A DNA stretch of 64,000 nucleotides from a virus (lineage: Duplodnaviria > Caudoviricetes), in IMG/VR virus record IMGVR_UViG_3300027509_000013, positions 68,000-131,999 of that record; one strand, 5' to 3'. Made by a program: the position numbers and the translations under genes. The notes under the pieces were generated by a model. That model had not been told where the DNA came from. It made no database searches and saw only the letters and a program-made list of their open reading frames with translations. The first letter of the stretch is position 1; each line of letters opens with the position of its first letter. This document shows positions 1,236-12,801 of this stretch, in pieces.

Positions 1236-1335
1236 ATCTCTTTCTTACTCTCTCCCTCTCTCTCGTACTCTCTCCTGACTCTCCTTCCATCTCCTGACTC
1301 TGGTACTCACTCTCTCTTCTTGCTCTCTCTCAGGA
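1236..1335. repeat. CT-rich low-complexity tract with short repeats (CTCCTGACTCT x2, TACTCTCTCC x2)
   Basis: Strong pyrimidine skew in a non-coding region, followed by a GC-rich stretch. Confidence 0.6.
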
Positions 1336-1682
1336 GGTCCTACTTCATCGGGTGGCTCTTGCCGTATGGTTACATTTACTAATACCCCGCGCGACGCCTG
1401 GCACTGACTTGACCGGGGGGTATTCGAAAGTCCGAGAGGACAACCCCCGATATATTATACATGACCCCCAGACCGAGCAATGTGGTTGTTAAAGCATGAA
1501 TGGTAAATAAGTATTATCTTAGTATAGATAATTACTTTTTTAAGATTTGGAAGTCTATGAGGTCGGTCCAGGAGGTACCGGCCTTTTTATTGATAAGAAT
1601 CAGGGTTTTATTGATCTCCAAGGGTTTCGTTGGATGCAATGGAATGAGGTTGGTATTAACTCATGTTGGTTGGGGCAGTCTT

Positions 1683-2357
1683 TTAGGTTAGACTGCCCCT
1701 TTTTATTTGGTTATTAGTGTTCATAAATCTTTTTATGTTAGAAAGGTCGTGTTGGAGACTTATTAATTTGGATTCCATAAGCATCACAATCATAGCGCAG
1801 ACATGGAGATCTTTATGTGTTTTAGCTAGTCCATTTAATTGATATCTAGTTCCCTCGACTGAGAGTATAAGAGGTTTGATAGACAATGTAATTTTTTTGC
1901 TAGAATCTGTAATATCTATTGAATGTTTGATCACCTCGTATATATCTAGATCATCTTCTATTCTTTGGCCTACTATTTTGTCTCCAGAGAAGTGTTTTAC
2001 TTCAGTTCTGAGTCCGACGTAAGCTTTGTAAGCAAGTATTAAGTCTTTGAACTCTTTATCGATGTCAATTTCGTCGATACCTTGTTCTTTTATTGATACA
2101 TTATCCATTTGGAAGCACATCTTCTCAAATTCTTTATTAGTGAGAACAGAGATCTCAAGATTAGCATCTTTAATGATCCAATCATTTTCATTTAATAGGT
2201 TCATAGTTTCATTCAATCCAATTATTCGAGGATCTTCAGCTAGAGTACATTTGAACCTATACTCTGTTCCTCTTAGGAAATTGTTTATTCTATCGAATTT
2301 AATAGCTGTTCTTTGCCACTGCATTGCTTCGATTTCTTCTTTTCTTGTGTATTTCAT
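1683..2357 (-). CDS. hypothetical protein (likely start MKYTRKEE at 2357)
   Basis: Long ORF; the internal ATG avoids overlap with the upstream gene. Confidence 0.65.
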   Translation of the reverse strand: MKYTRKEEIEAMQWQRTAIKFDRINNFLRGTEYRFKCTLAEDPRIIGLNETMNLLNENDWIIKDANLEISVLTNKEFEKMCFQMDNVSIKEQGIDEIDIDKEFKDLILAYKAYVGLRTEVKHFSGDKIVGQRIEDDLDIYEVIKHSIDITDSSKKITLSIKPLILSVEGTRYQLNGLAKTHKDLHVCAMIVMLMESKLISLQHDLSNIKRFMNTNNQIKRGSLT

Positions 2358-3452: not shown

Positions 3453-3460
3453 TAGATTTG
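3453..3460 (+). promoter_or_regulatory. Bacteroidota-type -7 promoter element for tRNA operon 1
   Basis: TAGATTTG matches TAnnTTTG. Confidence 0.6.
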
Positions 3461-3498
3461 TTTCGAATTAAGAAGTTAGCAATAGACAATACATTAAA

Positions 3499-3567
3499 GT
3501 GAAAACAAAAATTCAACAAAGGCATCCTCGCAACTATCACACTCGTGATGGAGTAGACGCTATTTGA
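3499..3567 (+). CDS. putative attenuator leader peptide 1 (MKTKIQQRHPRNYHTRDGVDAI)
   Basis: GTG...TGA; the codon run CAA CAA AGG CAT CCT CGC matches downstream Pro/His/Arg/Arg/Gln tRNAs. Confidence 0.8.
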   Translation: MKTKIQQRHPRNYHTRDGVDAI

Positions 3568-3595
3568 CCTTTTGTAAAGAACTATTAGTGTAGAT

Positions 3596-3631
3596 GCCCC
3601 TCATGAGTGAAAGCTTATGAGGGGTTTTTTT
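3596..3631 (+). terminator. intrinsic terminator/attenuator before tRNA operon 1
   Basis: GCCCCTCATGAGT-GAAA-GCTTATGAGGGG followed by T7. Confidence 0.85.
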
Positions 3632-3645
3632 ATTTTGATCAATAT

Positions 3646-3721
3646 AGGGATGTAGCTTAGTGGCCAGAGCGCGTATTTTGGGAATACGAAGGCGAGTGTT
3701 CAAATCACTCCATCCCTACCA
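3646..3721 (+). tRNA. tRNA-Pro(TGG)
   Basis: Cloverleaf; anticodon arm CGTAT-TTTGGGA-ATACG; encoded CCA. Confidence 0.95.
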
Positions 3722-3726
3722 ATTAT

Positions 3727-3802
3727 GGTAGCCTTGTGCTGTTTTGCAATGCAGCCGGACTGTGGATCTGGTGCGACGGGTTGGATTCCCGAGGTTTACC
3801 CA
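3727..3802 (+). tRNA. tRNA-His(GTG), atypical D and T loops
   Basis: CCGGA-CTGTGGA-TCTGG; T loop TTGGATT; imperfect acceptor stem; ends CCA. Confidence 0.8.
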
Positions 3803-3807
3803 ATAAT

Positions 3808-3880
3808 AGCCATGTAGCTCAACTGGCAGAGCGCTTCCCTACGAAGGAAGGGGTTGGGAGTTCGACTCTCTCCATGGTTA
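3808..3880 (+). tRNA. tRNA-Arg(ACG)
   Basis: CTTCC-CTACGAA-GGAAG; canonical D and T arms. Confidence 0.95.
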
Positions 3881-3924
3881 CTAAAATTTTAAAAATCGAC
3901 GGCGCTTCGCGCCTAGATACACAT

Positions 3925-4004
3925 GGTCAGGTAGCCACCCTCCTCTTCTAAAGGAGTAAGTGTAATTGGAGCTGAAAATCGGGGTTCGAATCCCTGTCTG
4001 ATCA
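3925..4004 (+). tRNA. tRNA-Arg(TCT), D-armless with long variable region
   Basis: Acceptor GGTCAGG/TCTGATC; CTCCT-CTTCTAA-AGGAG; T arm CGGGG-TTCGAAT-CCCTG; only 8 nt between acceptor and anticodon arms. Confidence 0.8.
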
Positions 4005-4054
4005 CTATTAAATAATAAATTTATTATTGTATATTTGTAAAAAATATATTAATT

Positions 4055-4321
4055 ATGACAGCATCGGAATTGTTAAATAAAGTACTGACTAAAGTATTTG
4101 CACTTCAATCTTTATCTGGTAAAATCAGGATAAAGACTGAAGAAAATAAAATGCAAGAACTAAATCTGTTTATTGTCTACTCTAATCATCCTGTTCAGTA
4201 TAACAATAAAATAAGTATTCTGAATTCTGATGATCATGATCTTGAAGAAATTTGGGAACAATTCAAAGAAGATGTTGATACCAATATAAGAGCAATTGAT
4301 CATATCGTTAATATGCCTTAA
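4055..4321 (+). CDS. hypothetical protein
   Basis: 88-aa ATG ORF with TATATTTG at 4030-4037. Confidence 0.7.
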   Translation: MTASELLNKVLTKVFALQSLSGKIRIKTEENKMQELNLFIVYSNHPVQYNNKISILNSDDHDLEEIWEQFKEDVDTNIRAIDHIVNMP

Positions 4322-4330
4322 ATTACACAA

Positions 4331-4403
4331 TGATGGTTAGCATAACTGGTTAGTGCATCGGGTTTTGGTCCCGAGGGATGGAGTTCGAGTCTCCGACCGT
4401 CAT
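4331..4403 (+). tRNA. tRNA-Gln(TTG)
   Basis: TCGGG-TTTTGGT-CCCGA; T1-A72. Confidence 0.95.
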
Positions 4404-4418
4404 CTAAATTACTGTTTT

Positions 4419-4715
4419 ATGAATGATACAAACATACCTGGTCCTTCCTTTACGGACTTTCTATATGCTGATATACCTACATTTACATCAGGTGAAGGTG
4501 TAGATACTCTTGAATATTTCAAACCTATCATACCAGATCCTGGTCCTAGACAGTTTAATTTATTTGTAGGCACCGAAGGATTCTTTCTTATTAGTGACGG
4601 GTTTAAAGATGAAAGAGATCGATCAGAACGTAAACACTGGCTAGCTCAAAGAATAGCTTACAGGAACCTGATCGATGGTAGAGAATATTACTCACGATTT
4701 AATAGCCCAGTATGA
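4419..4715 (+). CDS. hypothetical protein (start MNDTNIP)
   Basis: ATG just after tRNA-Gln. Confidence 0.6.
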   Translation: MNDTNIPGPSFTDFLYADIPTFTSGEGVDTLEYFKPIIPDPGPRQFNLFVGTEGFFLISDGFKDERDRSERKHWLAQRIAYRNLIDGREYYSRFNSPV

Positions 4716-4997
4716 GAAGATTTATAGGTCAGGAGATAGATGTCGGATCATTCTATACTTTAAGATACAGGTGGGTTTACCTGCCAAATGAGGCCTACAT
4801 CGAAGTTCCGCGGCAAATCCGACCATCAGTGCACTCAAACAAACAAAACATCCTCTACAGCGGCCAAAAACTACTTATCCGATGAATAAATACTACAAAC
4901 AAGCTATTATTGAAAGATATCAAAGCCACAATGGATGCTTATCATGCTTTATATTTATTATCTGGATTTTAGTAATGCTTATTGCATTGATACTTTC

Positions 4998-5252
4998 TTA
5001 CTCATGAAAAAACAAGAAATAAATCCAAGCACCAATAAATAAAAGTACAGGTATAAAACCAAAAATGAAATAACGAAATTTTCTATAGTATATCATTTTC
5101 TTCTCCTTTATTATAAGCTGATCATAATAGTAGTTAATAGCTTTGGGAATAGAACTACTCCAATAACCAAATGATATAGAAGATTCCTCGTAGTGCTCGA
5201 GAGCTCTTTTCCTCAAATCTTCTAGTGGTGTTTGTGCTGCTTGATTATCCAT
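4998..5252 (-). CDS. small membrane protein
   Basis: C-terminal hydrophobic segment. Confidence 0.65.
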   Translation of the reverse strand: MDNQAAQTPLEDLRKRALEHYEESSISFGYWSSSIPKAINYYYDQLIIKEKKMIYYRKFRYFIFGFIPVLLFIGAWIYFLFFHE

Positions 5253-5691
5253 TGTCTAATTTTATTTTAGCATCTATTTCTAAACCAATTATATCATGCA
5301 ACTCTTTCCTCAGATTCTTAGCTGTCTTTTCTGCTTCCAGTATCCCAGATATCAATTTCTTATGTCTTAATTTAGGATCGTGAATCCTTTTATCTCTAGG
5401 CTTGCTAATTGCAACCGAAGCCAAATCAAAACCTAAATTAGCTATTGCAACATTCAAATCATCTAGATATAAATCTCTAGGAAAACCAAATGCATTTCCA
5501 TCAGTTAATTGCTTGAAAATAATCATTTGAGGAACTGGATTGATTTCATGCTGTTCGCAGATTATTTTAGCCTCTTCTAAGCTTTGCTTGCTGTATCCAA
5601 CATAAGTGCCTCCAGTCCTAGAAGCACATTTTAAAAGATGTATGGTTTTACCACTTCTTCTTGATTTATATAGTATTTGTACATTATTCAT
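5245..5691 (-). CDS. small P-loop NTPase-like protein
   Basis: RRSGKT Walker-A-like and LYLDD Walker-B-like motifs. Confidence 0.6.
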   Translation of the reverse strand: MNNVQILYKSRRSGKTIHLLKCASRTGGTYVGYSKQSLEEAKIICEQHEINPVPQMIIFKQLTDGNAFGFPRDLYLDDLNVAIANLGFDLASVAISKPRDKRIHDPKLRHKKLISGILEAEKTAKNLRKELHDIIGLEIDAKIKLDNG

Positions 5692-5872
5692 TTTTTGATT
5701 TTATTTGTTCTTTAAGCCATAAAAAAGCTATTTCTTTTGATTCAAAATCAGAGCTTGCATCTGATACATATACACCAACTCTTTGTTTAGTGCTTTTAGC
5801 TATAAATGATACATAATGCTCTGTTCCATTATGCTCTACCTCTGTTAATTCTATAAATCTATCTAAAGTCAT
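5684..5872 (-). CDS. hypothetical protein
   Basis: 62-aa ORF directly after a TATATTTG motif (5877-5884, minus). Confidence 0.65.
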   Translation of the reverse strand: MTLDRFIELTEVEHNGTEHYVSFIAKSTKQRVGVYVSDASSDFESKEIAFLWLKEQIKSKNE

Positions 5873-5902
5873 AAATCAAATATACAAAAAATTTTTATTT
5901 AG

Positions 5903-5977
5903 TACACCAGGTGGGCTACGATCCCACGATCCCTCGATTAAAAGTCGAGTACTTTAGTCCAACTAAGCTACTGGTGC
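5903..5977 (-). tRNA. tRNA-Lys(TTT)
   Basis: CTCGA-CTTTTAA-TCGAG; T loop ATCGTAG. Confidence 0.92.
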
Positions 5978-5979
5978 AT

Positions 5980-6055
5980 TGGAGAACGTAGACGGGCTCG
6001 AACCGTCGTATCCGGATTTGCAGTCCGGCGCCTATGCCATCTCAGCCATACGTTC
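5980..6055 (-). tRNA. tRNA-Cys(GCA)
   Basis: CCGGA-CTGCAAA-TCCGG; U73; encoded CCA. Confidence 0.95.
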
Positions 6056-6060
6056 ATTAG

Positions 6061-6128
6061 CACAGGATGAATGAGTCGAACACTCTCGTAAGGGTTTGGA
6101 ATCCTTTTAGCTCCACAGCCTATCCTGC
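6061..6128 (-). tRNA. tRNA-Trp(CCA), shortened D arm
   Basis: AAGGA-TTCCAAA-CCCTT; D arm GCT-GTGG-AGC; G73. Confidence 0.85.
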
Positions 6129-6133
6129 ATAAA

Positions 6134-6216
6134 TGATTGATCCTCGGATTCGAACCGACCTCTGCCATTGCCACTCACTTTTCAGCGCGGGAGGAATCGA
6201 ACCTCAAAATCAATCA
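6134..6216 (-). ncRNA. tRNA-like RNA with two T-arm hairpins
   Basis: Closing stem TGATTGAT/ATCAATCA encloses GAGG-TTCGATT-CCTC and TCGG-TTCGAAT-CCGA. Confidence 0.55.
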
Positions 6217-6219
6217 TAG

Positions 6220-6291
6220 CGACAATGGACAGATTCGAACTGCCGTCCTCGGAACTTCACCCCGATGCTAAGCCACCTCAGCTACATTGTC
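6220..6291 (-). tRNA. tRNA-Phe(GAA)
   Basis: TCGGG-GTGAAGT-TCCGA. Confidence 0.92.
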
Positions 6292-6295
6292 AAAT

Positions 6296-6331
6296 AAAAA
6301 AAGCCTCGCAAAATTAATTACGAGGCTTTTT
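6296..6331 (-). terminator. intrinsic terminator/attenuator before tRNA operon 2
   Basis: Minus strand AGCCTCGTAA-loop-TTGCGAGGCT followed by a T-tract. Confidence 0.85.
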
Positions 6332-6353
6332 CATATGATCTAATCACATAGGT

Positions 6354-6413
6354 TTAGCAATCTCGCAATTCATGCAAAGAGAAACAAAACCATTTTTTTG
6401 TAATTAAAATCAT
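6354..6413 (-). CDS. putative attenuator leader peptide 2 (MILITKKWFCFSLHELRDC)
   Basis: ATG...TAA; AAA AAA TGG TTT TGT TTC matches downstream Phe/Trp/Cys/Lys tRNAs. Confidence 0.85.
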   Translation of the reverse strand: MILITKKWFCFSLHELRDC

Positions 6414-6417
6414 AATG

Positions 6418-6437
6418 CAAATATAGTGTTATATTTG
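6418..6437. promoter_or_regulatory. divergent Bacteroidota-type promoters
   Basis: TATATTTG on minus (6418-6425) and on plus (6430-6437). Confidence 0.65.
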
Positions 6438-6449
6438 TTAAAAAATAAC

Positions 6450-6776
6450 ATGATATCAAAACTTTCTTCAGAAGTAATCGATTTCGTAGCTAAAGTAGAA
6501 GCCAAATATCTTGAATACATGCAGGAGAGATTCCCTAATAATCGTATTGAGGAATTTGAAGTAACTGAAAACAAAAAGTACGTTAAGGTTATTCAATCAG
6601 GTGCCTTCTGCTTTATCAATAGAGAAAATGGGGATATCTATATGGCTAAAACATTTAGTTCTCCATCATTAAAAAATCCTCGAGGTAATTTATTCTCTAA
6701 ACAACTGGGAATGGAAGCGATATCTGAAAGATCTGCAGGAGGTAGAATCCATCCCCATATTAGGTATCTAAGATAA
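6450..6776 (+). CDS. conserved-looking small phage protein
   Basis: KKYVKV...FINRENGDIYMA...PRGNL pattern resembles small phage proteins; own promoter motif. Confidence 0.7.
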   Translation: MISKLSSEVIDFVAKVEAKYLEYMQERFPNNRIEEFEVTENKKYVKVIQSGAFCFINRENGDIYMAKTFSSPSLKNPRGNLFSKQLGMEAISERSAGGRIHPHIRYLR

Positions 6777-6780
6777 AAAG

Positions 6781-6851
6781 CGGGCCATCCCGGGCTCGAA
6801 CCGAGGATAACGGAGAGACAGTCCGTCGTATTACCACTATACTAATGGCCC
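6781..6851 (-). tRNA. tRNA-Asp(GTC)
   Basis: ACGGA-CTGTCTC-TCCGT; G73. Confidence 0.92.
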
Positions 6852-6855
6852 ATTG

Positions 6856-6929
6856 AGCCTAAGCAGGGATTCGAACCCCGGACATCTTCATTACAAATGA
6901 AGCGCTCTGACCAGCTGAGCTACTTAGGC
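6856..6929 (-). tRNA. tRNA-Thr(TGT)
   Basis: CTTCA-TTTGTAA-TGAAG. Confidence 0.95.
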
Positions 6930-7366
6930 AAGTTTTTATTTAAATGAGACATTTTACCTCCACATCTTCGGCTACATGTAGGTGTTTTTCCCATTGATAG
7001 TTTATGATTTATATTTTTACAGTCTTTTGAAAATTCATTTTTACAAATTGGACAAATTAAGGTTATCATTGTTTTAGATTTCCCAATATGCTTATTGTGC
7101 TTCACTATATTCTCTTTTCTGGAAAGGATTTGAAGATTTGATATAGAATCATTCATTTTATTTTCATCTATATGATCTACATGCTCTTCTGGCCTTAAAT
7201 ACCTTCTTACATGACAACTCATTATATATCTAGCATATGAAGTCGAAGTTTTTGTCCCATCTCTCCGAACCAATGCGACAACTCTTCTTGGTTCTTTGTT
7301 TGTATTTACATATCCTGCGATGTAATCTTTATAATATGGCCATCTTAATACTATTTTTGTTGACAT
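6920..7366 (-). CDS. HNH homing endonuclease inside the tRNA array
   Basis: HVDHIDENKMNDSISNLQIL HNH motif and C-terminal CPIC...CSRRC; stop overlaps the tRNA-Thr 5' end. Confidence 0.9.
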   Translation of the reverse strand: MSTKIVLRWPYYKDYIAGYVNTNKEPRRVVALVRRDGTKTSTSYARYIMSCHVRRYLRPEEHVDHIDENKMNDSISNLQILSRKENIVKHNKHIGKSKTMITLICPICKNEFSKDCKNINHKLSMGKTPTCSRRCGGKMSHLNKNLPK

Positions 7367-7386
7367 ATAAATTTATTTACTTAATG

Positions 7387-7463
7387 TATCTGCGGAGAGA
7401 CTTGAACTCTCATGTGACCAATTACGCTTTCGACAAGATATAAGCTTGAGGCGATACGCAGAC
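7387..7463 (-). tRNA. tRNA-Ile(TAT), D-armless with long variable region
   Basis: GTCTGCG/CGCAGAT acceptor; CAAG-CTTATAT-CTTG; GAGAG-TTCAAGT-CTCTC. Confidence 0.8.
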
Positions 7464-7475
7464 AATATAACATTG

Positions 7476-7546
7476 TAGTTCTGGCAGGACTTGAACCTGC
7501 GTCCATGGTATGTAACACCACTGCTCGGCCACTGAGCTACAGAACT
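7476..7546 (-). tRNA. tRNA-Val(TAC)
   Basis: GTGGT-GTTACAT-ACCAT. Confidence 0.92.
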
Positions 7547-7619
7547 AGAGCCGCTTTCATTTATAACGCGCCAACGTCACCTTCTAAAAAGGCAGGTCAT
7601 TACAAGCGGGACCTGTTTG

Positions 7620-7693
7620 AGCACGAATTCGGGATCGAACCGAATCTATTCTAGCTTGGAAGGCTAGCGCACCACCATTTATGCGTCTCGTGC
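7620..7693 (-). tRNA. tRNA-Gly(TCC)
   Basis: CTAGC-CTTCCAA-GCTAG; U73. Confidence 0.92.
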
Positions 7694-7797
7694 TTATGTA
7701 CCTCAAGTTGATCTTAAAACTCTTCCTAGCTCCCTAAATGGGAGGGCTACAGAAATTCAAATCAAAATGGCTTGGGCCATCAGGTAATTTCAGTTAG

Positions 7798-7874
7798 TTG
7801 GCACAATAGGATTCGAACCTATGTTTTCAACCGCTATCTTAGTCATGCGTATCAGGCATGCCGATTATGTGCCA
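7798..7874 (-). tRNA. tRNA-Ile(GAT), D-armless with long variable region
   Basis: TGGCACA/TGTGCCA; CATGC-CTGATAC-GCATG; ATAGG-TTCGAAT-CCTAT. Confidence 0.8.
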
Positions 7875-7879
7875 ATATG

Positions 7880-7953
7880 CTGCTTTGCAAGGGATCGAAC
7901 CTTGGACCTACGGATTAACAGTCCGCCGCTCTAACCAACTGAGCTACAAAGCA
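7880..7953 (-). tRNA. tRNA-Asn(GTT)
   Basis: GCGGA-CTGTTAA-TCCGT; G73. Confidence 0.95.
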
Positions 7954-8012
7954 ATGTAAGGGTAATCGTAAGATCTCGACGGCCACTTCGGACACCCTAA
8001 AATCGATTATTG

Positions 8013-8085
8013 TGGAGAAGAAGGGCTTCGAACCCTCAACCTTCTGATTGCAAATCAGATGCACGTCCTCTTGTGCTTCAACCCC
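8013..8085 (-). tRNA. tRNA-Ala(TGC)
   Basis: TCTGA-TTTGCAA-TCAGA; G3-U70 present; two U-U mismatches in the acceptor stem. Confidence 0.9.
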
Positions 8086-8088
8086 AAA

Positions 8089-8162
8089 TGGCGGGAGAGG
8101 GAGTCGAACCCTCGTCTTGGGCTTATGAGACCCAGCTGGAACCACCTCCAGTCTACCCCGCA
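8089..8162 (-). tRNA. tRNA-Met(CAT), initiator-like
   Basis: TGGGT-CTCATAA-GCCCA; 1:72 mismatch and a GCGGGG acceptor as in tRNA-fMet. Confidence 0.85.
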
Positions 8163-8175
8163 ATATATTTTCCAT

Positions 8176-8213
8176 AAAAAAAGGGACCAGAAAATTAATC
8201 CTGATCCCTTTTT
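8176..8213 (-). terminator. intrinsic terminator/attenuator before tRNA operon 3
   Basis: Minus strand AGGGATCAGGA-loop-TTCTGGTCCCT followed by a T-tract. Confidence 0.85.
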
Positions 8214-8234
8214 GTATATTGTATGTTACTTACT

Positions 8235-8315
8235 TCAATACATAAAGAGACCAGGTGACGTATCATCGCCTCCGGCTACTATTGTAATATTGATATTGGT
8301 AATAATTTGTTTCAC
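8235..8315 (-). CDS. putative attenuator leader peptide 3 (MKQIITNINITIVAGGDDTSPGLFMY)
   Basis: GTG...TGA; 16 consecutive I/T/N/V/A/G/D codons match downstream tRNAs; promoter TACATTTG at 8335-8342. Confidence 0.85.
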   Translation of the reverse strand: MKQIITNINITIVAGGDDTSPGLFMY

Positions 8316-8372
8316 TTTACTTTTTATTGAATGACAAATGTACATTAAGTTTTATTACTAAGCAACAATTAA

Positions 8373-8807
8373 TCAATAATATCTTTTTGCTTGTAATGCT
8401 ATATCTATTTTAGCCCAGTTTACATAGTCTCTCCCTGTCGGGTTTTTGATCAATGGGCAACATATAGATGCATCATCGATATAAATGTGACAATAAGCTT
8501 TAGGACTTGTAGTCCATGTGTACTGTGTCGGATTTGTTTGGATCCCAAATAAATGAATTTCTCTGTCCTTAAACCAATTCACTGCTTGAGCTAGATAGTC
8601 TCCTGACTCAGTTATGATCTGAGGATCTTCTGATTCTGGATTGACTATATTTGATCTCATGGTAAATAAAATCAAATTATGTCCATTGGCTACTAACTTT
8701 TTAAGAGTCTTTACTGCTCCTGGAACGTCCGCTCCGACTTTAGGAAATTCATGTATCACACATGTTCCATCAAAATCTACCCCTACGTATCTATTTTCTT
8801 GCATCAT
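8373..8807 (-). CDS. HAD-superfamily phosphatase
   Basis: VDFDGT motif I, FTMR, K and YIDD motif IV. Confidence 0.85.
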   Translation of the reverse strand: MMQENRYVGVDFDGTCVIHEFPKVGADVPGAVKTLKKLVANGHNLILFTMRSNIVNPESEDPQIITESGDYLAQAVNWFKDREIHLFGIQTNPTQYTWTTSPKAYCHIYIDDASICCPLIKNPTGRDYVNWAKIDIALQAKRYY

Positions 8808-9531
8808 TGAATAAGCTATTTATTTTTAAATCATTATATCTCTTCTGTCCATCAGTGAAGTAATCTATATCTTTTTCACAAACTACTAAAGTTAGATTCA
8901 TATTATCGATTACATTAAGTTTATTGACAGCTAGAGCTAAACTCATGCTTCCTCCATGGGTGTCTAAGATCTTCTCTCCTGGCTTTGCATATTCCATTAG
9001 TAGCCATTCGTACAACTTAACTGGCTTTTGAGTAGGGTGTATTCTCTTTTCGTTGAGTTTCTTGTTCCCTTGCTGCTTTAGTGCCTTTACTCTATCTTTT
9101 CCACAGTATACTCCTTGCATCATTCCAGAGAACATGTAGTAAACGATGTCCATTCTGTTGCTAAAGCTTTGGTAGGCGATCTCACATCCATATTGGTCCG
9201 CGCCATTTGCTACTATCTTATCCCAGACTATTCTGCCGCCAACAAGATTAGGATAGTAGTTTGCACCCCAGATTATTTGATTCTTACTTACTCTAAATAA
9301 TTCGTCAAAGTACTCTGGTGGACTTCTCTGATCATCCCAATCTTTATGTTTGTATTTCGCTTGTTTTACTGGTCTATATGTTCCATTTGGTTGTTGAGCC
9401 CGACCTGATTTTGTAGAAGGCTTACTAGCACCTATTCCATATTCAAGATCTGGCATGGCTAAGTCGAAAAAGTTATCTCCGAGATCACGCATGAAATCCA
9501 TGTTGTCAGTATGTAGAAGAAGTATACTCAT
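8791..9531 (-). CDS. DNA amino-methyltransferase (N6A/N4C, beta class)
   Basis: HPTQKPVKLY and ILDTHGGSMS motifs; catalytic motif reads DLEY. Confidence 0.85.
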   Translation of the reverse strand: MSILLLHTDNMDFMRDLGDNFFDLAMPDLEYGIGASKPSTKSGRAQQPNGTYRPVKQAKYKHKDWDDQRSPPEYFDELFRVSKNQIIWGANYYPNLVGGRIVWDKIVANGADQYGCEIAYQSFSNRMDIVYYMFSGMMQGVYCGKDRVKALKQQGNKKLNEKRIHPTQKPVKLYEWLLMEYAKPGEKILDTHGGSMSLALAVNKLNVIDNMNLTLVVCEKDIDYFTDGQKRYNDLKINSLFNDARK

Positions 9532-9797
9532 TACAGCGCAGTACCAAGAAGTTGAGCCCCGGATTCAGAAGTATCCTTAGACATAACATATTGTTTTTCT
9601 CCTTCATCATCCCAAACACGATTAGAACAATCTGAACAGTATGTTTTCCCTTCTTCAGTAATAGACCATTCTCCTGCTTCTAAGATATCATCTTTTATTG
9701 CAGATTTCTCACTTAAAGCTACACATCCACTCCAAAGCTCATAGTTCTCTTTGCAGATATCACAAGATGCACACCACATTTTTACTTCTTCTATCAT
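9531..9797 (-). CDS. small Zn-binding hypothetical protein
   Basis: CDIC...CSDC. Confidence 0.65.
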   Translation of the reverse strand: MIEEVKMWCASCDICKENYELWSGCVALSEKSAIKDDILEAGEWSITEEGKTYCSDCSNRVWDDEGEKQYVMSKDTSESGAQLLGTAL

Positions 9798-9901
9798 AAT
9801 TTTTTTATTTTCGAATAACCATCCGCTATCGGACTCCCTACCGATACCTGCTCCTTGGTGATCACCTTACTTTGGACGAGCTACGGATGATTGTTCTTCT
9901 C

Positions 9902-10336
9902 TTAATTAAATCCTAAATCAACTACTCTAGTACTCGGCGCTATCTCTTTCCAATTTCCTAATAATACTTCTGCAGGAGGCAAATCTAGTAAGCTTGCTAA
10001 ATCTATATAGGTGTCATAACATGAAGTAACATATAAATCTTTGAAATAACCCATTATAGCCATATGGTCCTGCAGAGAGATGTTTCTTAGTCTTAGATTT
10101 AAAGAACTGTCATCAATGGTCGACATTAGAATCCAGTAGTCTCCATGGTAACTATCAGGTTGAATAACTACACTGGTTGACTTTCCTCTATACTCAAATG
10201 TATTTGGATTAGCATTGAGAAGGATCTTATGAGTATGAATGCCGACATCATCAGTATAATAGATCCAATGATTCTTGTATAAATCTGGAATAGGCTGATT
10301 ATGTCTGTATTCCCAATCTTTGATGTACTTAATCAT
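9902..10336 (-). CDS. hypothetical protein
   Basis: 144-aa ORF overlapping the upstream stop. Confidence 0.65.
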   Translation of the reverse strand: MIKYIKDWEYRHNQPIPDLYKNHWIYYTDDVGIHTHKILLNANPNTFEYRGKSTSVVIQPDSYHGDYWILMSTIDDSSLNLRLRNISLQDHMAIMGYFKDLYVTSCYDTYIDLASLLDLPPAEVLLGNWKEIAPSTRVVDLGFN

Positions 10337-10769
10337 TATTAAACCGTTTTAACTCTCCACAATTTTGTGCATATTTAATAACTCCTTCCAATACATCTTT
10401 AGTCATTGATTCAATGTCATCATCAGTCATGTCTACACCCAATATTGGACCTTGAACTTTAACTGAAATACTTTGAATTTGACCTATTTTTACGAATCCA
10501 CATTTGTGAGGACAGTTAAATACAGAAACTATGATGTTTTTGTCTTTACCTTCTAATGGCATTTTTACGTGTAAGTAACGTGGATCATTTGGTAATTGAT
10601 AAGGATTATATTTCTCTTTCAGTGCTTCAAGCACAGCATAATAAGCCTTTTTTCTGCCTGGCATTATGTTTCCTGATAAATCTAAAGATTCCTTTAGAAG
10701 AGTTATCTCCTTATCATTCAAATCATTCATGTTGTCGCATACATCCTTAATTGCTTCTCTTATTTCCAT
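10329..10769 (-). CDS. hypothetical protein (start MEIREAIK)
   Basis: ATG at 10769, downstream of the tRNA-like RNA. Confidence 0.65.
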   Translation of the reverse strand: MEIREAIKDVCDNMNDLNDKEITLLKESLDLSGNIMPGRKKAYYAVLEALKEKYNPYQLPNDPRYLHVKMPLEGKDKNIIVSVFNCPHKCGFVKIGQIQSISVKVQGPILGVDMTDDDIESMTKDVLEGVIKYAQNCGELKRFNND

Positions 10770-10782
10770 TATTGTGTATTTG

Positions 10783-10900
10783 AGGCCAGAGCAGGACTCG
10801 AACCTGCAACACATCTTATATCGCTAGAAAATAAAGGTGTCTTAAAAATAAGAAGGATACTCCTAAAAAGTACTGCGTCTACCAATTCCGCCACCTGGCC
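10783..10900 (-). ncRNA. Leu-type tRNA-like RNA with TTA anticodon-like loop and ~50-nt insertion
   Basis: GGCCAGG-TGGCGGAATTGGTAGACGC...GCAGG-TTCGAGT-CCTGC-TCTGGCC; arm GTACT-TTTTAGG-AGTAT. Confidence 0.7.
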
Positions 10901-10916
10901 TTAGATTTTAAAAATC

Positions 10917-10953
10917 GTCAGGGGACGATCAATATCCTTCAGAGTCCCCTGAC
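10917..10953. other. strong hairpin
   Basis: GTCAGGGGAC...GTCCCCTGAC perfect 10-bp inverted repeat. Confidence 0.6.
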
Positions 10954-10964
10954 TTTATATGGTA

Positions 10965-11195
10965 CTATGCTTTTACAAGTATTTATGCTGACAATATAAA
11001 GAATCGCTCTACCCCTAAGCTACCCGACCTTGATTGTTTTTTAGAGGTCGGGATGGGATTCGAACCCATGACCTATTCCTTTAGTTTACTTGTAGCCTTT
11101 CCCATGTATAATCCTGATGCTAAAGCTATTACCTCAACATTAAATCTAATATCTAGCATTTAATGAATCTGAACGTAATGCTTATGCTTCAGGTA
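10965..11195 (-). ncRNA. circularly permuted tRNA-like RNA (Y-RNA/YrlA-like topology) with a 5' hexamer-repeat tract
   Basis: Order is T arm (ATGGG-TTCGAAT-CCCAT), loop-closed acceptor (CCCGACCT/AGGTCGGG), D arm (TAGCTTAGGGGTAGAGC), with closing stem TACAAGTA/TACTTGTA. Confidence 0.75.
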
Positions 11196-11197
11196 AT

Positions 11198-11989
11198 TTA
11201 CTTTTTATGCAAATATGCAAACAAACTGTCAGCAGTAATGCTTGACTTTACACTTTCTACTTCATTAGCTTCTTTCAAAGCCTGAATAACAGCAACTCTA
11301 AGCTTAGATATTCTTGACAATACCTCTGCTTTTTCTCTTTGAGAAAAAGCTCCAGTAAATATTTGACGAGAACCCTCACCTAATGTAACAGTAGTTGTTT
11401 TTTGAGCAACTTTAGGAGTATAGCTAGCTCCATCAATCTTAGAAATATTTGGATCTTCTAAGATGTAATCGACTTTTTCAGTTGTTTTATTCTCAGTACG
11501 AACTAATGGGTTTTCATAGATGCCTTTTCTTCCTTCATAAGACTCTTCTACAGTAGGATTCCACTCAACAGCATCTGATCTAACTGGTATGCTTGAATAC
11601 ATACTCTTAAATTCAGGTGAGTCAATCAAAGATTTTAATCTAAGTAATTCTAAAGTAGACAAATCCTTCCACTTAATGTCATCAAAAATCAAATCAGCTT
11701 TAGCTGCGCCAGAAGCATTAGTAGCTTCTTGATCAAAAAGACTATCTATATAATCCTTAGAACTTAAAGAAAAGTAATCTAATTTTTCATCAACAGTAGT
11801 AACCACTAATTGATTGCTTCTAAGTTTTGGGTCATCTACAGTTTGATCTTTTGGCTCATAAGTTTTCTTTTCACCAAAAAAAGCACCTTGATTTTTAGTG
11901 AAAAACTTAATGTAATTTTGAAGTGCTCTTTTAAATTCCTGACCAAGAGCATCGGTCTTTGCTAATAATACATTTAATTTTACATTCAT
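11198..11989 (-). CDS. uncharacterised protein directly upstream of the permuted tRNA-like RNA
   Basis: 263-aa ORF with its own TACATTTG motif (12008-12015). Confidence 0.85.
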   Translation of the reverse strand: MNVKLNVLLAKTDALGQEFKRALQNYIKFFTKNQGAFFGEKKTYEPKDQTVDDPKLRSNQLVVTTVDEKLDYFSLSSKDYIDSLFDQEATNASGAAKADLIFDDIKWKDLSTLELLRLKSLIDSPEFKSMYSSIPVRSDAVEWNPTVEESYEGRKGIYENPLVRTENKTTEKVDYILEDPNISKIDGASYTPKVAQKTTTVTLGEGSRQIFTGAFSQREKAEVLSRISKLRVAVIQALKEANEVESVKSSITADSLFAYLHKK

Positions 11990-12061
11990 TATAATTCAAT
12001 TTTGAATCAAATGTAAACAAAATATTTTTTAATTAAGCAATAAATAAATATTTTTTTAAAA

Positions 12062-12094
12062 ATAGCTGACATCGGTATTAACGATATCAGCTAT
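12062..12094 (-). terminator. hairpin after tRNA operon 4
   Basis: ATAGCTGA...TCAGCTAT inverted repeat followed by Ts on the minus strand. Confidence 0.55.
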
Positions 12095-12098
12095 ATAG

Positions 12099-12186
12099 CG
12101 GTAAGTGAGAGGATCGAACTCTCAAGGCCTTTCAGCTCGCCATGTTTCAAATATGGTTCCGTCGCCTGCCATCGGATTGACCTACC
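12099..12186 (-). tRNA. tRNA-Ser(TGA)
   Basis: CCATA-TTTGAAA-CATGG; long variable arm; G73. Confidence 0.9.
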
Positions 12187-12192
12187 ATGTTG

Positions 12193-12281
12193 CAGAAGGA
12201 GAGGGATTCGAACCCTCGCTACCAATTAAAGTAGACCTCAGATTAGCAGTCTGGTACTATTACCAACTCAGTCACCCTTCT
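12193..12281 (-). tRNA. tRNA-Ser(GCT)
   Basis: CAGA-CTGCTAA-TCTG; long variable arm; G73. Confidence 0.92.
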
Positions 12282-12285
12282 ATAG

Positions 12286-12369
12286 TGGGAATAGATGGAG
12301 TCGAACCACCCGAGTCATTATAACAACAGATTTACAGTCTGTCCCGCTACCCCTACGGTATATACTCCC
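12286..12369 (-). tRNA. tRNA-Tyr(GTA)
   Basis: ACAGA-CTGTAAA-TCTGT; variable arm. Confidence 0.95.
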
Positions 12370-12373
12370 ATTG

Positions 12374-12447
12374 TACACACGATCGGACTTGAACCGATAA
12401 TCAACGCATTTTAAGTACGTCGGCGTTGCCATTTAGCCTACGTGTGC
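12374..12447 (-). tRNA. tRNA-Leu(TAA), short variable loop
   Basis: ACGTA-CTTAAAA-TGCGT; 5-nt variable loop. Confidence 0.88.
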
Positions 12448-12453
12448 TAAAAG

Positions 12454-12537
12454 TACCGAAGGTGGGACTCGAACCCACAAAGGTGTCACTTTCTAAAAGT
12501 GTGCAGTATGCCTAATTCCCACTTAACCCACTTCGGC
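12454..12537 (-). tRNA. tRNA-Leu(TAG), enlarged D region and short variable loop
   Basis: CACT-TTTAGAA-AGTG; GTGGG-TTCGAGT-CCCAC. Confidence 0.82.
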
Positions 12538-12541
12538 AAAT

Positions 12542-12580
12542 AAAAAAAGCCCATTGCGATATTTCACGCAATGGGCTTTT
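12542..12580 (-). terminator. intrinsic terminator/attenuator before tRNA operon 4
   Basis: Minus strand AGCCCATTGCG-loop-CGCAATGGGCT followed by a T-tract. Confidence 0.88.
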
Positions 12581-12603
12581 GTAGTTCTTAACTTATTTCT
12601 ACA

Positions 12604-12669
12604 TCAATACCGGTTGCGTTCGTCGTTAGACAAATAGAGCAGACTCGATAATGATGATGTATTTTTCAT
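12604..12669 (-). CDS. putative attenuator leader peptide 4 (MKNTSSLSSLLYLSNDERNRY)
   Basis: ATG...TGA; TCA TCA TTA TCG AGT CTG CTC TAT TTG TCT matches Leu/Leu/Tyr/Ser/Ser tRNAs. Confidence 0.85.
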   Translation of the reverse strand: MKNTSSLSSLLYLSNDERNRY

Positions 12670-12680
12670 TGTATTATTTG

Positions 12681-12752
12681 TAACCCGTGAGATAATCGAA
12701 ATCTCCGCTTCACCTTGAAAAGATGACGTCCTGACCACTAGACCAACGGGCC
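12681..12752 (-). tRNA. tRNA-Glu(TTC)
   Basis: TCATC-TTTTCAA-GGTGA. Confidence 0.92.
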
Positions 12753-12793
12753 TAGGTTCCTCAATTTCTATGTTAATATTGTTTCTCACAGTG

Positions 12794-12801
12794 CAAATGT
12801 A
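12794..12801 (-). promoter_or_regulatory. Bacteroidota-type -7 promoter element for tRNA-Glu and operon 4
   Basis: TACATTTG. Confidence 0.6.

Follow-up and report, generated by a model that had tools for sequence, protein, structure and literature searches.

Predicted leader-peptide attenuators in front of the tRNA gene clusters of a marine phage

Why phages carry tRNA genes, and when they use them, is an open question, and nothing is known about how phage tRNA arrays are regulated. In the phage that we describe here, a tiny gene and a predicted stop-transcription hairpin are found in front of each tRNA gene cluster, and each tiny gene is written in exactly the codons that the tRNAs behind it read. 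This looks like a switch that makes phage tRNAs only when those codons are hard to translate, and we asked whether the arrangement is real, whether it could arise by chance, and how it might work.

The DNA analysed (the window, 64,000 nucleotides) is the right half of a 131,999-bp IMG/VR virus record, IMGVR_UViG_3300027509_000013, with 35.9% G+C, and all 23 tRNA genes of the record lie at window positions 3646-12752. In a tblastn search, the large terminase was most like that of the crAss-like Cellulophaga phage phi14:2 (26% identity), and all 87 matching records are phages of Bacteroidota, uncultured gut phages, or phages with no host given. A neighbouring 263-aa protein is 42% identical to one in Prevotella Lak megaphages, and the only sequencing run containing this DNA is a marine metagenome DNA run, probably its source. 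The host is therefore probably a marine member of the Bacteroidota.

A short ORF and a terminator in front of four tRNA genes

The preliminary description of this locus, which placed the element at 6296-6425, had noticed a leader with six consecutive codons corresponding exactly to four downstream tRNAs, including rare Trp and Cys, so that a chance match was deemed unlikely. It had also noticed a pairing between 6362-6370 and a terminator arm at 6316-6324, as well as an ATG lying 4 nt after a promoter motif, taken to suggest a leaderless mRNA. What had been noticed is indeed there, every element being present on the minus strand, with the small correction that the functional unit runs from about 6425 (the -7 box) to 6292 (the end of the U tract), while the ORF starts at 6413. 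Its parts are the following.

6418-6425, minus strand: Bacteroidota-type -7 promoter box TATATTTG, separated by 4 nt (CATT) from the ATG; the predicted transcription start is the A of the ATG at 6413
6354-6413, minus strand: leader ORF of 19 codons (ATG 6413-6411, then ATT TTA ATT ACA AAA AAA TGG TTT TGT TTC TCT TTG CAT GAA TTG CGA GAT TGC) plus TAA (6356-6354), encoding MILITKKWFCFSLHELRDC
6381-6398, minus strand: regulatory codon run AAA AAA TGG TTT TGT TTC (Lys Lys Trp Phe Cys Phe), codons 6-11 of the ORF
6373-6382, minus strand: region 1 (CUCUUUGCA...), pairing with region 2 in minimum-free-energy folds when no ribosome is present
6362-6370, minus strand: region 2, the antiterminator strand AAUUGCGAG, inside the last codons of the ORF
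6331-6350, minus strand: small hairpin between the stop codon and the terminator, enclosed by the antiterminator helix
6292-6330, minus strand: intrinsic terminator, with a stem of 13-15 pairs (regions 3 and 4; hairpin 6330-6299), a 6-nt loop, then U7, beginning 23 nt after the ORF and ending 7 nt before tRNA-Phe
5902-6291, minus strand: regulated genes, tRNA-Phe(gaa) 6291-6219, two tRNA 3'-half-like remnants (6129-6218), tRNA-Trp(cca) 6128-6060, tRNA-Cys(gca) 6055-5980 and tRNA-Lys(ttt) 5977-5902, the four tRNAs being called by ARAGORN

Each of the six codons is read by one of these four tRNAs, and all four anticodons are represented. Under the codon usage of the genome, a run of six or more cognate codons in 18 has a probability of 1.1e-4, and of the 1329 short ORFs (15-30 codons, six frames, whole genome), this one alone reaches a run of six for this tRNA set, while the other two reading frames of the same stretch give runs of 1 and 2. 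The view that a chance match is unlikely is therefore upheld. The RNA folds far better than shuffled sequences (z-score of -6.65 to -6.69, with 0 of 200 shuffles folding as well). The pairing of AAUUGCGAG (6370-6362) with CUCGUAAUU (6324-6316) comprises nine consecutive pairs, including one G-U, with a duplex energy of -11.9 kcal/mol against -5.3 +/- 1.7 for 2000 dinucleotide shuffles (P=0.002).

The promoter is less firmly placed. TAnnTTTG is the -7 box of the main sigma factor of Bacteroidota, and in Flavobacterium psychrophilum it occupies -12 to -5 (PMC9723704; see also PMC7366714), so that with the G at 6418 position +1 falls on 6413, the A of the ATG, which makes the leaderless reading reasonable. 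The same box-N4-ATG spacing begins the 62-aa ORF 5872-5684, and the motif lies within 60 nt upstream of 13 of 123 long ORFs, against 4.3 +/- 1.9 at random positions; a divergent box at 6430-6437 (plus strand) serves ORF 6450-6776. However, the motif carries little information (174 copies genome-wide against 159 expected), the start site is not mapped and the -33 element was not examined, so that these observations do not settle whether a sigma-A promoter is present. A leaderless start further needs transcription to begin exactly on the A, and leaderless mRNAs are only about 4-6% of mRNAs in Bacteroides and Flavobacterium (PMC9723704; PMC7366714). It is therefore conceivable, although we consider it unlikely, that the attenuator is real without being leaderless, the ATG being translated only on longer transcripts that come from the operon upstream (unit A3, below) through tRNA-Thr/Asp and the antisense of ORF 6450-6776, with the TATATTTG box either unused or starting transcription inside the ORF. 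No terminator was found on the minus strand between tRNA-Asp (6780) and 6413, as this alternative would have it. Yet the spacing between box and ATG fits the published position exactly and recurs at ORF 5872, the leader uses ATG, which leaderless initiation needs, whereas the two sister leaders that have 5' UTRs use GTG, and transcription would have to run antisense through a plus-strand gene.

Recurrence within the genome and in other viral records

The unit, which we name A2, is not alone. The same architecture precedes every other tRNA cluster of the genome, as follows.

3453-3635, plus strand: unit A1, with a -7 box at 3453-3460, an ORF from GTG 3499 to TGA 3567 (VKTKIQQRHPRNYHTRDGVDAI), the run QQRHPR at 3514-3531 and a terminator at 3593-3628, preceding tRNA-Pro, His, Arg(acg), Arg(tct) and, after ORF 4055-4321, Gln
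8174-8342, minus strand: unit A3, with a -7 box at 8342-8335, an ORF from GTG 8315 to TGA 8235 (VKQIITNINITIVAGGDDTSPGLFMY), a run of 16 codons at 8306-8259 and a terminator at 8210-8181, preceding tRNA(cat), Ala, Asn, Ile, Gly, Val, an HNH gene, then Thr and Asp
12538-12801, minus strand: unit A4, with a -7 box at 12801-12794, tRNA-Glu at 12752-12680, an ORF from ATG 12669 to TGA 12604 (MKNTSSLSSLLYLSNDERNRY), a run of 10 codons at 12657-12628 and a terminator at 12580-12545, preceding tRNA-Leu(uag), Leu(taa), Tyr, Ser(gct) and Ser(tga)

Together the four units precede 22 of the 23 tRNA genes, the exception being tRNA-Glu, which sits between the promoter and the leader of A4, and all 22 downstream anticodons are represented in the codon run of their own leader (5/5, 4/4, 8/8 and 5/5 for A1 to A4). 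Matching each leader to each tRNA set gives cognate runs of 6, 6, 16 and 10 on the diagonal, with probabilities of 6.5e-5, 1.1e-4, 3.8e-5 and 3.4e-7, while off-diagonal runs are 2 or less in 11 of 12 cells; the remaining cell, a run of 6 that the tail of the A1 leader gives against the large A3 codon set, was judged to be chance, since that set covers 43-48% of codons. Some of the tRNA assignments are weaker than others: His, Arg(tct) and Ser(tga) are called only by ARAGORN at relaxed thresholds, Arg(tct) having a poor cloverleaf; the UAG anticodon of the tRNA at 12454-12537 comes from the Rfam alignment and not from ARAGORN; and ATA was counted as read by tRNA(cat), so that if this tRNA is Met and not Ile2 the A3 run splits into 8 and 7. 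It must also be noted that tRNA-Gln of A1 has a -7 box of its own at 4030-4037, in front of ORF 4055. The gaps between stop codon and stem are 25, 23, 24 and 23 nt, the distances from terminator to tRNA 17, 7, 17 and 7 nt, the antiterminator P values 0.0005, 0.002, 0.001 and 0.024, and the fold z-scores -3.9, -6.65, -5.1 and -5.7. Only four strong terminators lie on the minus strand of the whole 132-kb genome, and three of them belong to these units.

No homologue of the A2 unit was found, so that covariation was not tested. A degenerate pattern for the six codons matched at least 119 viral loci, none of which has a tRNA within 400 nt downstream. A search with ORF 8373-8807 gave 46 viral loci at about 55% identity, of which 44 have no tRNA and the other two have one and two and no such unit; they are not syntenic and were dropped. 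The 263-aa ORF 11198-11989 gave one viral locus (L048, 49%), two metagenome loci (L049, 1.6 kb; L050, 49%) and no locus among genome contigs; L048 and L050, with two further pieces of that record (L173, L174), hold 22+7+3 tRNAs and no terminator-to-tRNA site, so that the nearest detectable kin, with 49% identity in one protein and 32 tRNAs, has no such unit. The large terminase and ORF 5245-5691 gave no relative among viral contigs, and blastn of 5000-9000 against phages hit only tRNAs. Named phages scanned in the same way gave one terminator-to-tRNA site without a matching ORF in the tRNA regions of Prevotella phage Lak-A1, no site in Xanthomonas phage XacN1 (28 tRNAs) or Pelagibacter phage Mosig, and one site without an ORF in Cellulophaga phage phi14:2 (bases 1-100,000 of its 100,418).

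In order to learn how often such a pattern appears by chance, we drew two samples of tRNA-bearing viral contigs with 18-base tRNA D-arm motifs. They hold 117 and 113 loci (230 loci, 2.06 Mb in total) with 604 and 488 tRNAs (1092), and 26 and 17 of the loci carry eight or more tRNAs. Asking for a terminator within 40 nt upstream of a tRNA, together with an ORF ending 5-50 nt before the stem, we found 16 and 3 sites, of which 13 have no matching ORF (P of 0.06 or more) and six, in four records, have matching leaders (P of 3e-8 to 0.03). These are MKNNTQQQYQPQPYPMDSGGSIVV before Tyr, Pro and Gln (P=3e-8); three paralogous MRTI... leaders, before Lys/His/Phe/Trp/Asn, before Arg/Ser/Ser, and before Asn/Ile/Arg/Thr/Leu/Cys/Val; MTSLTCNSNYFTSSFSNYGKTDQWGFA before Phe/Asn/Ser/Cys; and one weaker case, a leader before 19 tRNAs (P=0.03). 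Longer pieces of those records added three sites, two of them convincing, MVYANNIRRPQPQQPRRLYA before nine Pro/Gln/Arg tRNAs and a 42-codon leader before 18 tRNAs, and one weak. In all, eight convincing analogous units and one weak one were found in four other viral records.

A permutation test was run over the 24 sites with a candidate ORF, leaving out locus L199 (no ORF), locus L258 (its tRNA reads a stop codon) and the four short loci that were replaced by longer ones. The sum of own-leader runs is 118, against 52.6 +/- 7.2 for permutations, with a maximum of 92 in 100,000 permutations, and the own leader ranks first of 24 in 10 sites. In-frame runs of the 13 units sum to 106, against 30 and 27 in the other two frames. 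Constrained folds show antiterminators in these units too, although our duplex shuffle test, which used only the last 45 nt of the ORF, missed those that lie further upstream (unit a of record G002, one of the analogue-bearing records) or start at the stop codon (two units of another, G004), so that their P values of 0.94, 0.89 and 0.76 do not test the helices that the folds show. One record has TAnnTTTG boxes and another a TTGCAA-17-TATAAT promoter, and the hosts therefore differ. Two of the three units of G002 share promoter, 5' UTR, first codons and last codons but differ in the middle of the leader, which is what modular rewriting of the sensor would look like. Against phages, blastn of two analogous leaders (from records G003 and G004) gave no match, or tRNA matches only.

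These data bear on another alternative, namely that a chance ORF lies in front of an ordinary terminator or insulator, which would only stop or dampen incoming transcription while tRNAs are made by constitutive leakage. Plain terminators before tRNAs do exist, as the 13 control sites without a matching ORF demonstrate. We nevertheless hold this alternative to be very improbable, in view of the run probabilities of the four units (from 1e-4 down to 3e-7), the coverage of 22 of 22 anticodons, the dependence on reading frame, the constant gap between stop and stem, the significant antiterminators and the permutation test (P below 1e-5).

A model of attenuation at tRNA operons

The interpretation given in the preliminary description, that of a leader-peptide attenuator, is supported, in that every in silico test that we could run agrees with it. 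We folded the leader with the nucleotides under a ribosome held single-stranded. With no ribosome, region 1 (6382-6373) pairs with region 2 (6370-6362) and the terminator forms; with the A site on codon 6, 8 or 11, and the 3' arm of the terminator not yet transcribed, the best structure pairs region 2 with the 5' arm of the terminator; with the ribosome at the stop codon, region 2 is covered and only the terminator remains. As the terminator ends 7 nt before tRNA-Phe there is no room for a promoter in between, and in this view the four tRNAs can only be made by read-through.

We can therefore understand the stretch 6425-6292 as a ribosome-mediated transcription attenuator that gates the tRNA-Phe/Trp/Cys/Lys operon of the phage, a reading in which we have considerable confidence. 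Host RNA polymerase would start at the A of the ATG, and a ribosome would translate the 19-codon leader while the polymerase moves on. If the Lys, Trp, Phe and Cys codons are decoded quickly, the ribosome would reach the stop codon and cover region 2, the terminator hairpin (6330-6299) would form and transcription would end 7 nt before tRNA-Phe. If any of the four charged tRNAs is scarce, the ribosome would stall on codons 6-11 and cover region 1, leaving region 2 free to pair with the 5' arm of the terminator (6324-6316), so that the polymerase reads through and the four tRNAs are made. The products would relieve the stall, the loop being a negative feedback on decoding capacity. Sequence and computation establish the anatomy, the match between codons and tRNAs, the alternative structures (as models) and their recurrence, whereas the transcription start, translation of the ORF, termination and the response to tRNA depletion are deduced, this virus being uncultured and without RNA data or experiment, and so is the nature of the shortage that is sensed, be it codon demand of the phage, host tRNA decay or host anticodon nucleases.

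Two other ways of sensing have to be considered. The attenuator might read general translation or amino-acid supply, for instance host starvation or shut-off, rather than the level of the particular tRNAs, codon choice reflecting only which amino acids matter. Classical attenuators respond to charging, which depends on amino acids as well as on tRNA, and nothing here separates the two. This reading appears improbable to us, however, because the match is at the level of anticodons, not only of amino acids, as seen with AGG and CGC/CGT for the two Arg tRNAs and with CTG/CTC, TTA/TTG, AGT and TCN for the two Leu and two Ser tRNAs, and because making more tRNA would not cure an amino-acid shortage. 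Alternatively, uncharged tRNAs might pair directly with the codon run, which would offer specifier-like triplets, in a translation-independent sensor like a T-box. We regard this as a remote possibility: no T-box model appears among the 42 Rfam matches listed at E up to 10 for 6250-6460, an in-frame start and a stop at a fixed 23-32 nt from the terminator occur in 12 of the 13 units examined (15 nt in the remaining one), with a frame-specific signal, and there is no conserved platform that could bind an acceptor end.

It is somewhat more likely than not, in our opinion, that the phenomenon is broader, and that tailed phages with large tRNA arrays commonly run them under demand-sensing feedback, each tRNA operon being preceded by a multi-codon leader peptide that serves as a codon-supply meter for exactly the tRNAs behind it. 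The phage would then switch on its own tRNAs only when the host pool for those codons fails, for example after host tRNA decay or cleavage by anticodon nucleases. The device would have arisen or spread in unrelated phages of hosts with different promoter types, and would evolve modularly, by rewriting of the middle of the leader when the tRNA content changes. An attenuator whose sensor is written in the codons of the tRNAs it controls would be the first direct feedback of decoding capacity on tRNA gene transcription, and would extend a textbook mechanism from metabolism to the translation apparatus itself. It gives a sequence-only rule, that leader codons predict the downstream tRNAs, which can be searched for in any virome; it would supply compact, programmable sensors of the supply of single tRNAs; and it makes the idea that phage tRNAs answer tRNA-targeting host defences directly testable with a reporter.

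Comparison with known attenuators

Phage tRNA gene clusters in general (PMC6409571) share with the present one the presence of tRNA arrays in large phages, interrupted by homing endonucleases, and phage tRNAs have been seen as an answer to host tRNA decay or anticodon nucleases. Full-text literature searches, which did not extend to supplements or to most subscription journals, found no paper describing an attenuator or a leader peptide in front of tRNA genes, in phages or in cells. Leader-peptide attenuation is reported as likely in flavobacteria (PMC9723704). In mycobacteria, leaderless polycysteine short ORFs act as Cys-responsive attenuators (bioRxiv 10.1101/834739); there too a leaderless short ORF is the sensor, but in a different phylum, for a single amino acid and with metabolic target genes.

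Control of the translation apparatus by premature termination, tuned by the charging or supply of a tRNA, is found in the pheST (pheM leader) attenuator and in T-box riboswitches, which control aminoacyl-tRNA synthetase genes. However, pheM controls a synthetase, not a tRNA, and T-boxes bind the tRNA directly and have no ORF. Multivalent attenuation is found in ilvGMEDA (Leu, Val and Ile codons) and thr (Thr and Ile codons), where one leader senses several amino acids at once, but these are two or three related amino acids of one pathway, while here the set is defined by which tRNA genes lie downstream.

The closest mechanism is that of the leader-peptide attenuators of amino-acid biosynthetic operons (trpL, pheL, hisL, thrL, leuL, ilvL), with a short ORF carrying a run of regulatory codons, regions 1 to 4 with terminator and antiterminator alternatives, an intrinsic terminator with a U tract, and the logic that a stall causes read-through. 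The Rfam models Phe_leader (RF01859), His_leader (RF00514) and Thr_leader (RF00506) align over their full length, spanning 6294-6406, but at about half their gathering thresholds (28.5 against 55, 26.2 against 49 and 22 against 55 bits), and a run of the whole window at gathering thresholds listed tRNAs only. The unit therefore would work like these leaders without belonging to those sequence families. It differs from them in that the regulated genes are tRNAs, not enzymes, so that the product itself is what would be sensed, in that the run mixes four amino acids here and up to eight in the sister unit A3, and in that the element is virus-encoded and predicted to be leaderless.

tRNA-like and other elements in and around the tRNA operons

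window 6129-6218, minus strand: 90-nt gap between tRNA-Phe and tRNA-Trp, with two tRNA-like pieces
window 6920-7366, minus strand: HNH endonuclease gene (phrog_14913, E=3e-36)
window 10782-10900, minus strand: tRNA-like gene
window 10985-11105, minus strand: 121-nt element with a tRNA-like T arm
window 1280-1700, plus strand: G+C-rich, pyrimidine-rich stretch followed by two strong terminators

The gap between tRNA-Phe and tRNA-Trp holds two pieces that look like the T arm together with the 3' acceptor strand of tRNAs, while no full tRNA is called there, and these are probably remnants of lost tRNA genes inside the operon that lies behind the second attenuator (A2). The HNH endonuclease gene sits inside the tRNA operon of the third unit (A3), between tRNA-Val and tRNA-Thr, an arrangement that is typical of a homing endonuclease insertion.

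The tRNA-like gene at 10782-10900 scores 42.5 bits on the Rfam tRNA model and has a 39-nt insertion after the anticodon loop; its anticodon is read by ARAGORN as UUA, which makes it a possible ochre suppressor. The 121-nt element next to it scores 34 bits (threshold 69) on the Y-RNA-like YrlA model, and neither of the two is preceded by an attenuator. In the stretch at 1280-1700, the G+C-rich and pyrimidine-rich part (1280-1500) precedes terminators at 1560-1584 and 1672-1699; the whole stretch gave no Rfam match at E up to 0.1, and may be a small RNA gene or genes.

Promoter boxes, tRNA-Glu and the tail of the A1 leader

window 5872-5684, minus strand: 62-aa ORF
window 6430-6437, plus strand: divergent box, 12 nt before the ATG of ORF 6450-6776
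window 12680-12801, minus strand: tRNA-Glu and the promoter box that precedes it
window 3553-3564, plus strand: tail of the leader of the first unit (A1), DGVDAI

The arrangement of TATATTTG followed by 4 nt and then by an ATG also begins the 62-aa ORF, which would be a second predicted leaderless mRNA. As a consequence of the divergent box at 6430-6437, the two predicted promoters of the 6296-6450 spacer sit back to back. tRNA-Glu is the only tRNA of the genome that is not behind an attenuator: it lies between the promoter box and the leader of the fourth unit (A4), whose ATG starts 10 nt after the 3' end of the tRNA, and the leader mRNA would therefore begin life fused to a tRNA. The tail of the A1 leader, for its part, is made of codons read by tRNAs of the A3 operon. 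We judged this to be chance because that codon set is large, but it could be cross-talk between operons.

Analogous units in other viral records and kin of a 263-aa protein

Analogous leader-terminator units in front of tRNA clusters were found in four other viral records (G002 to G005; L numbers designate the pieces of these records that were examined), at the following positions:
G002, piece L408: 5483-8650
G003, piece L407: 14100-14240
G004, piece L405: 1556-1699 and 11962-12150
G004, piece L406: 10884-11002
G005, piece L409: 10835-10985

Their leaders match the tRNAs behind them. Units a and c of G002 are paralogues with a rewritten middle, while the leaders of G004 share the ending CAUAGGU at the stop codon.

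Finally, the protein of 263 aa encoded at window 11198-11989 (minus strand) has no PHROG match. It is 49-57% identical to three uncultured contigs, and 42% identical, over 98% of its length, to a protein of all 15 Prevotella Lak megaphage records.
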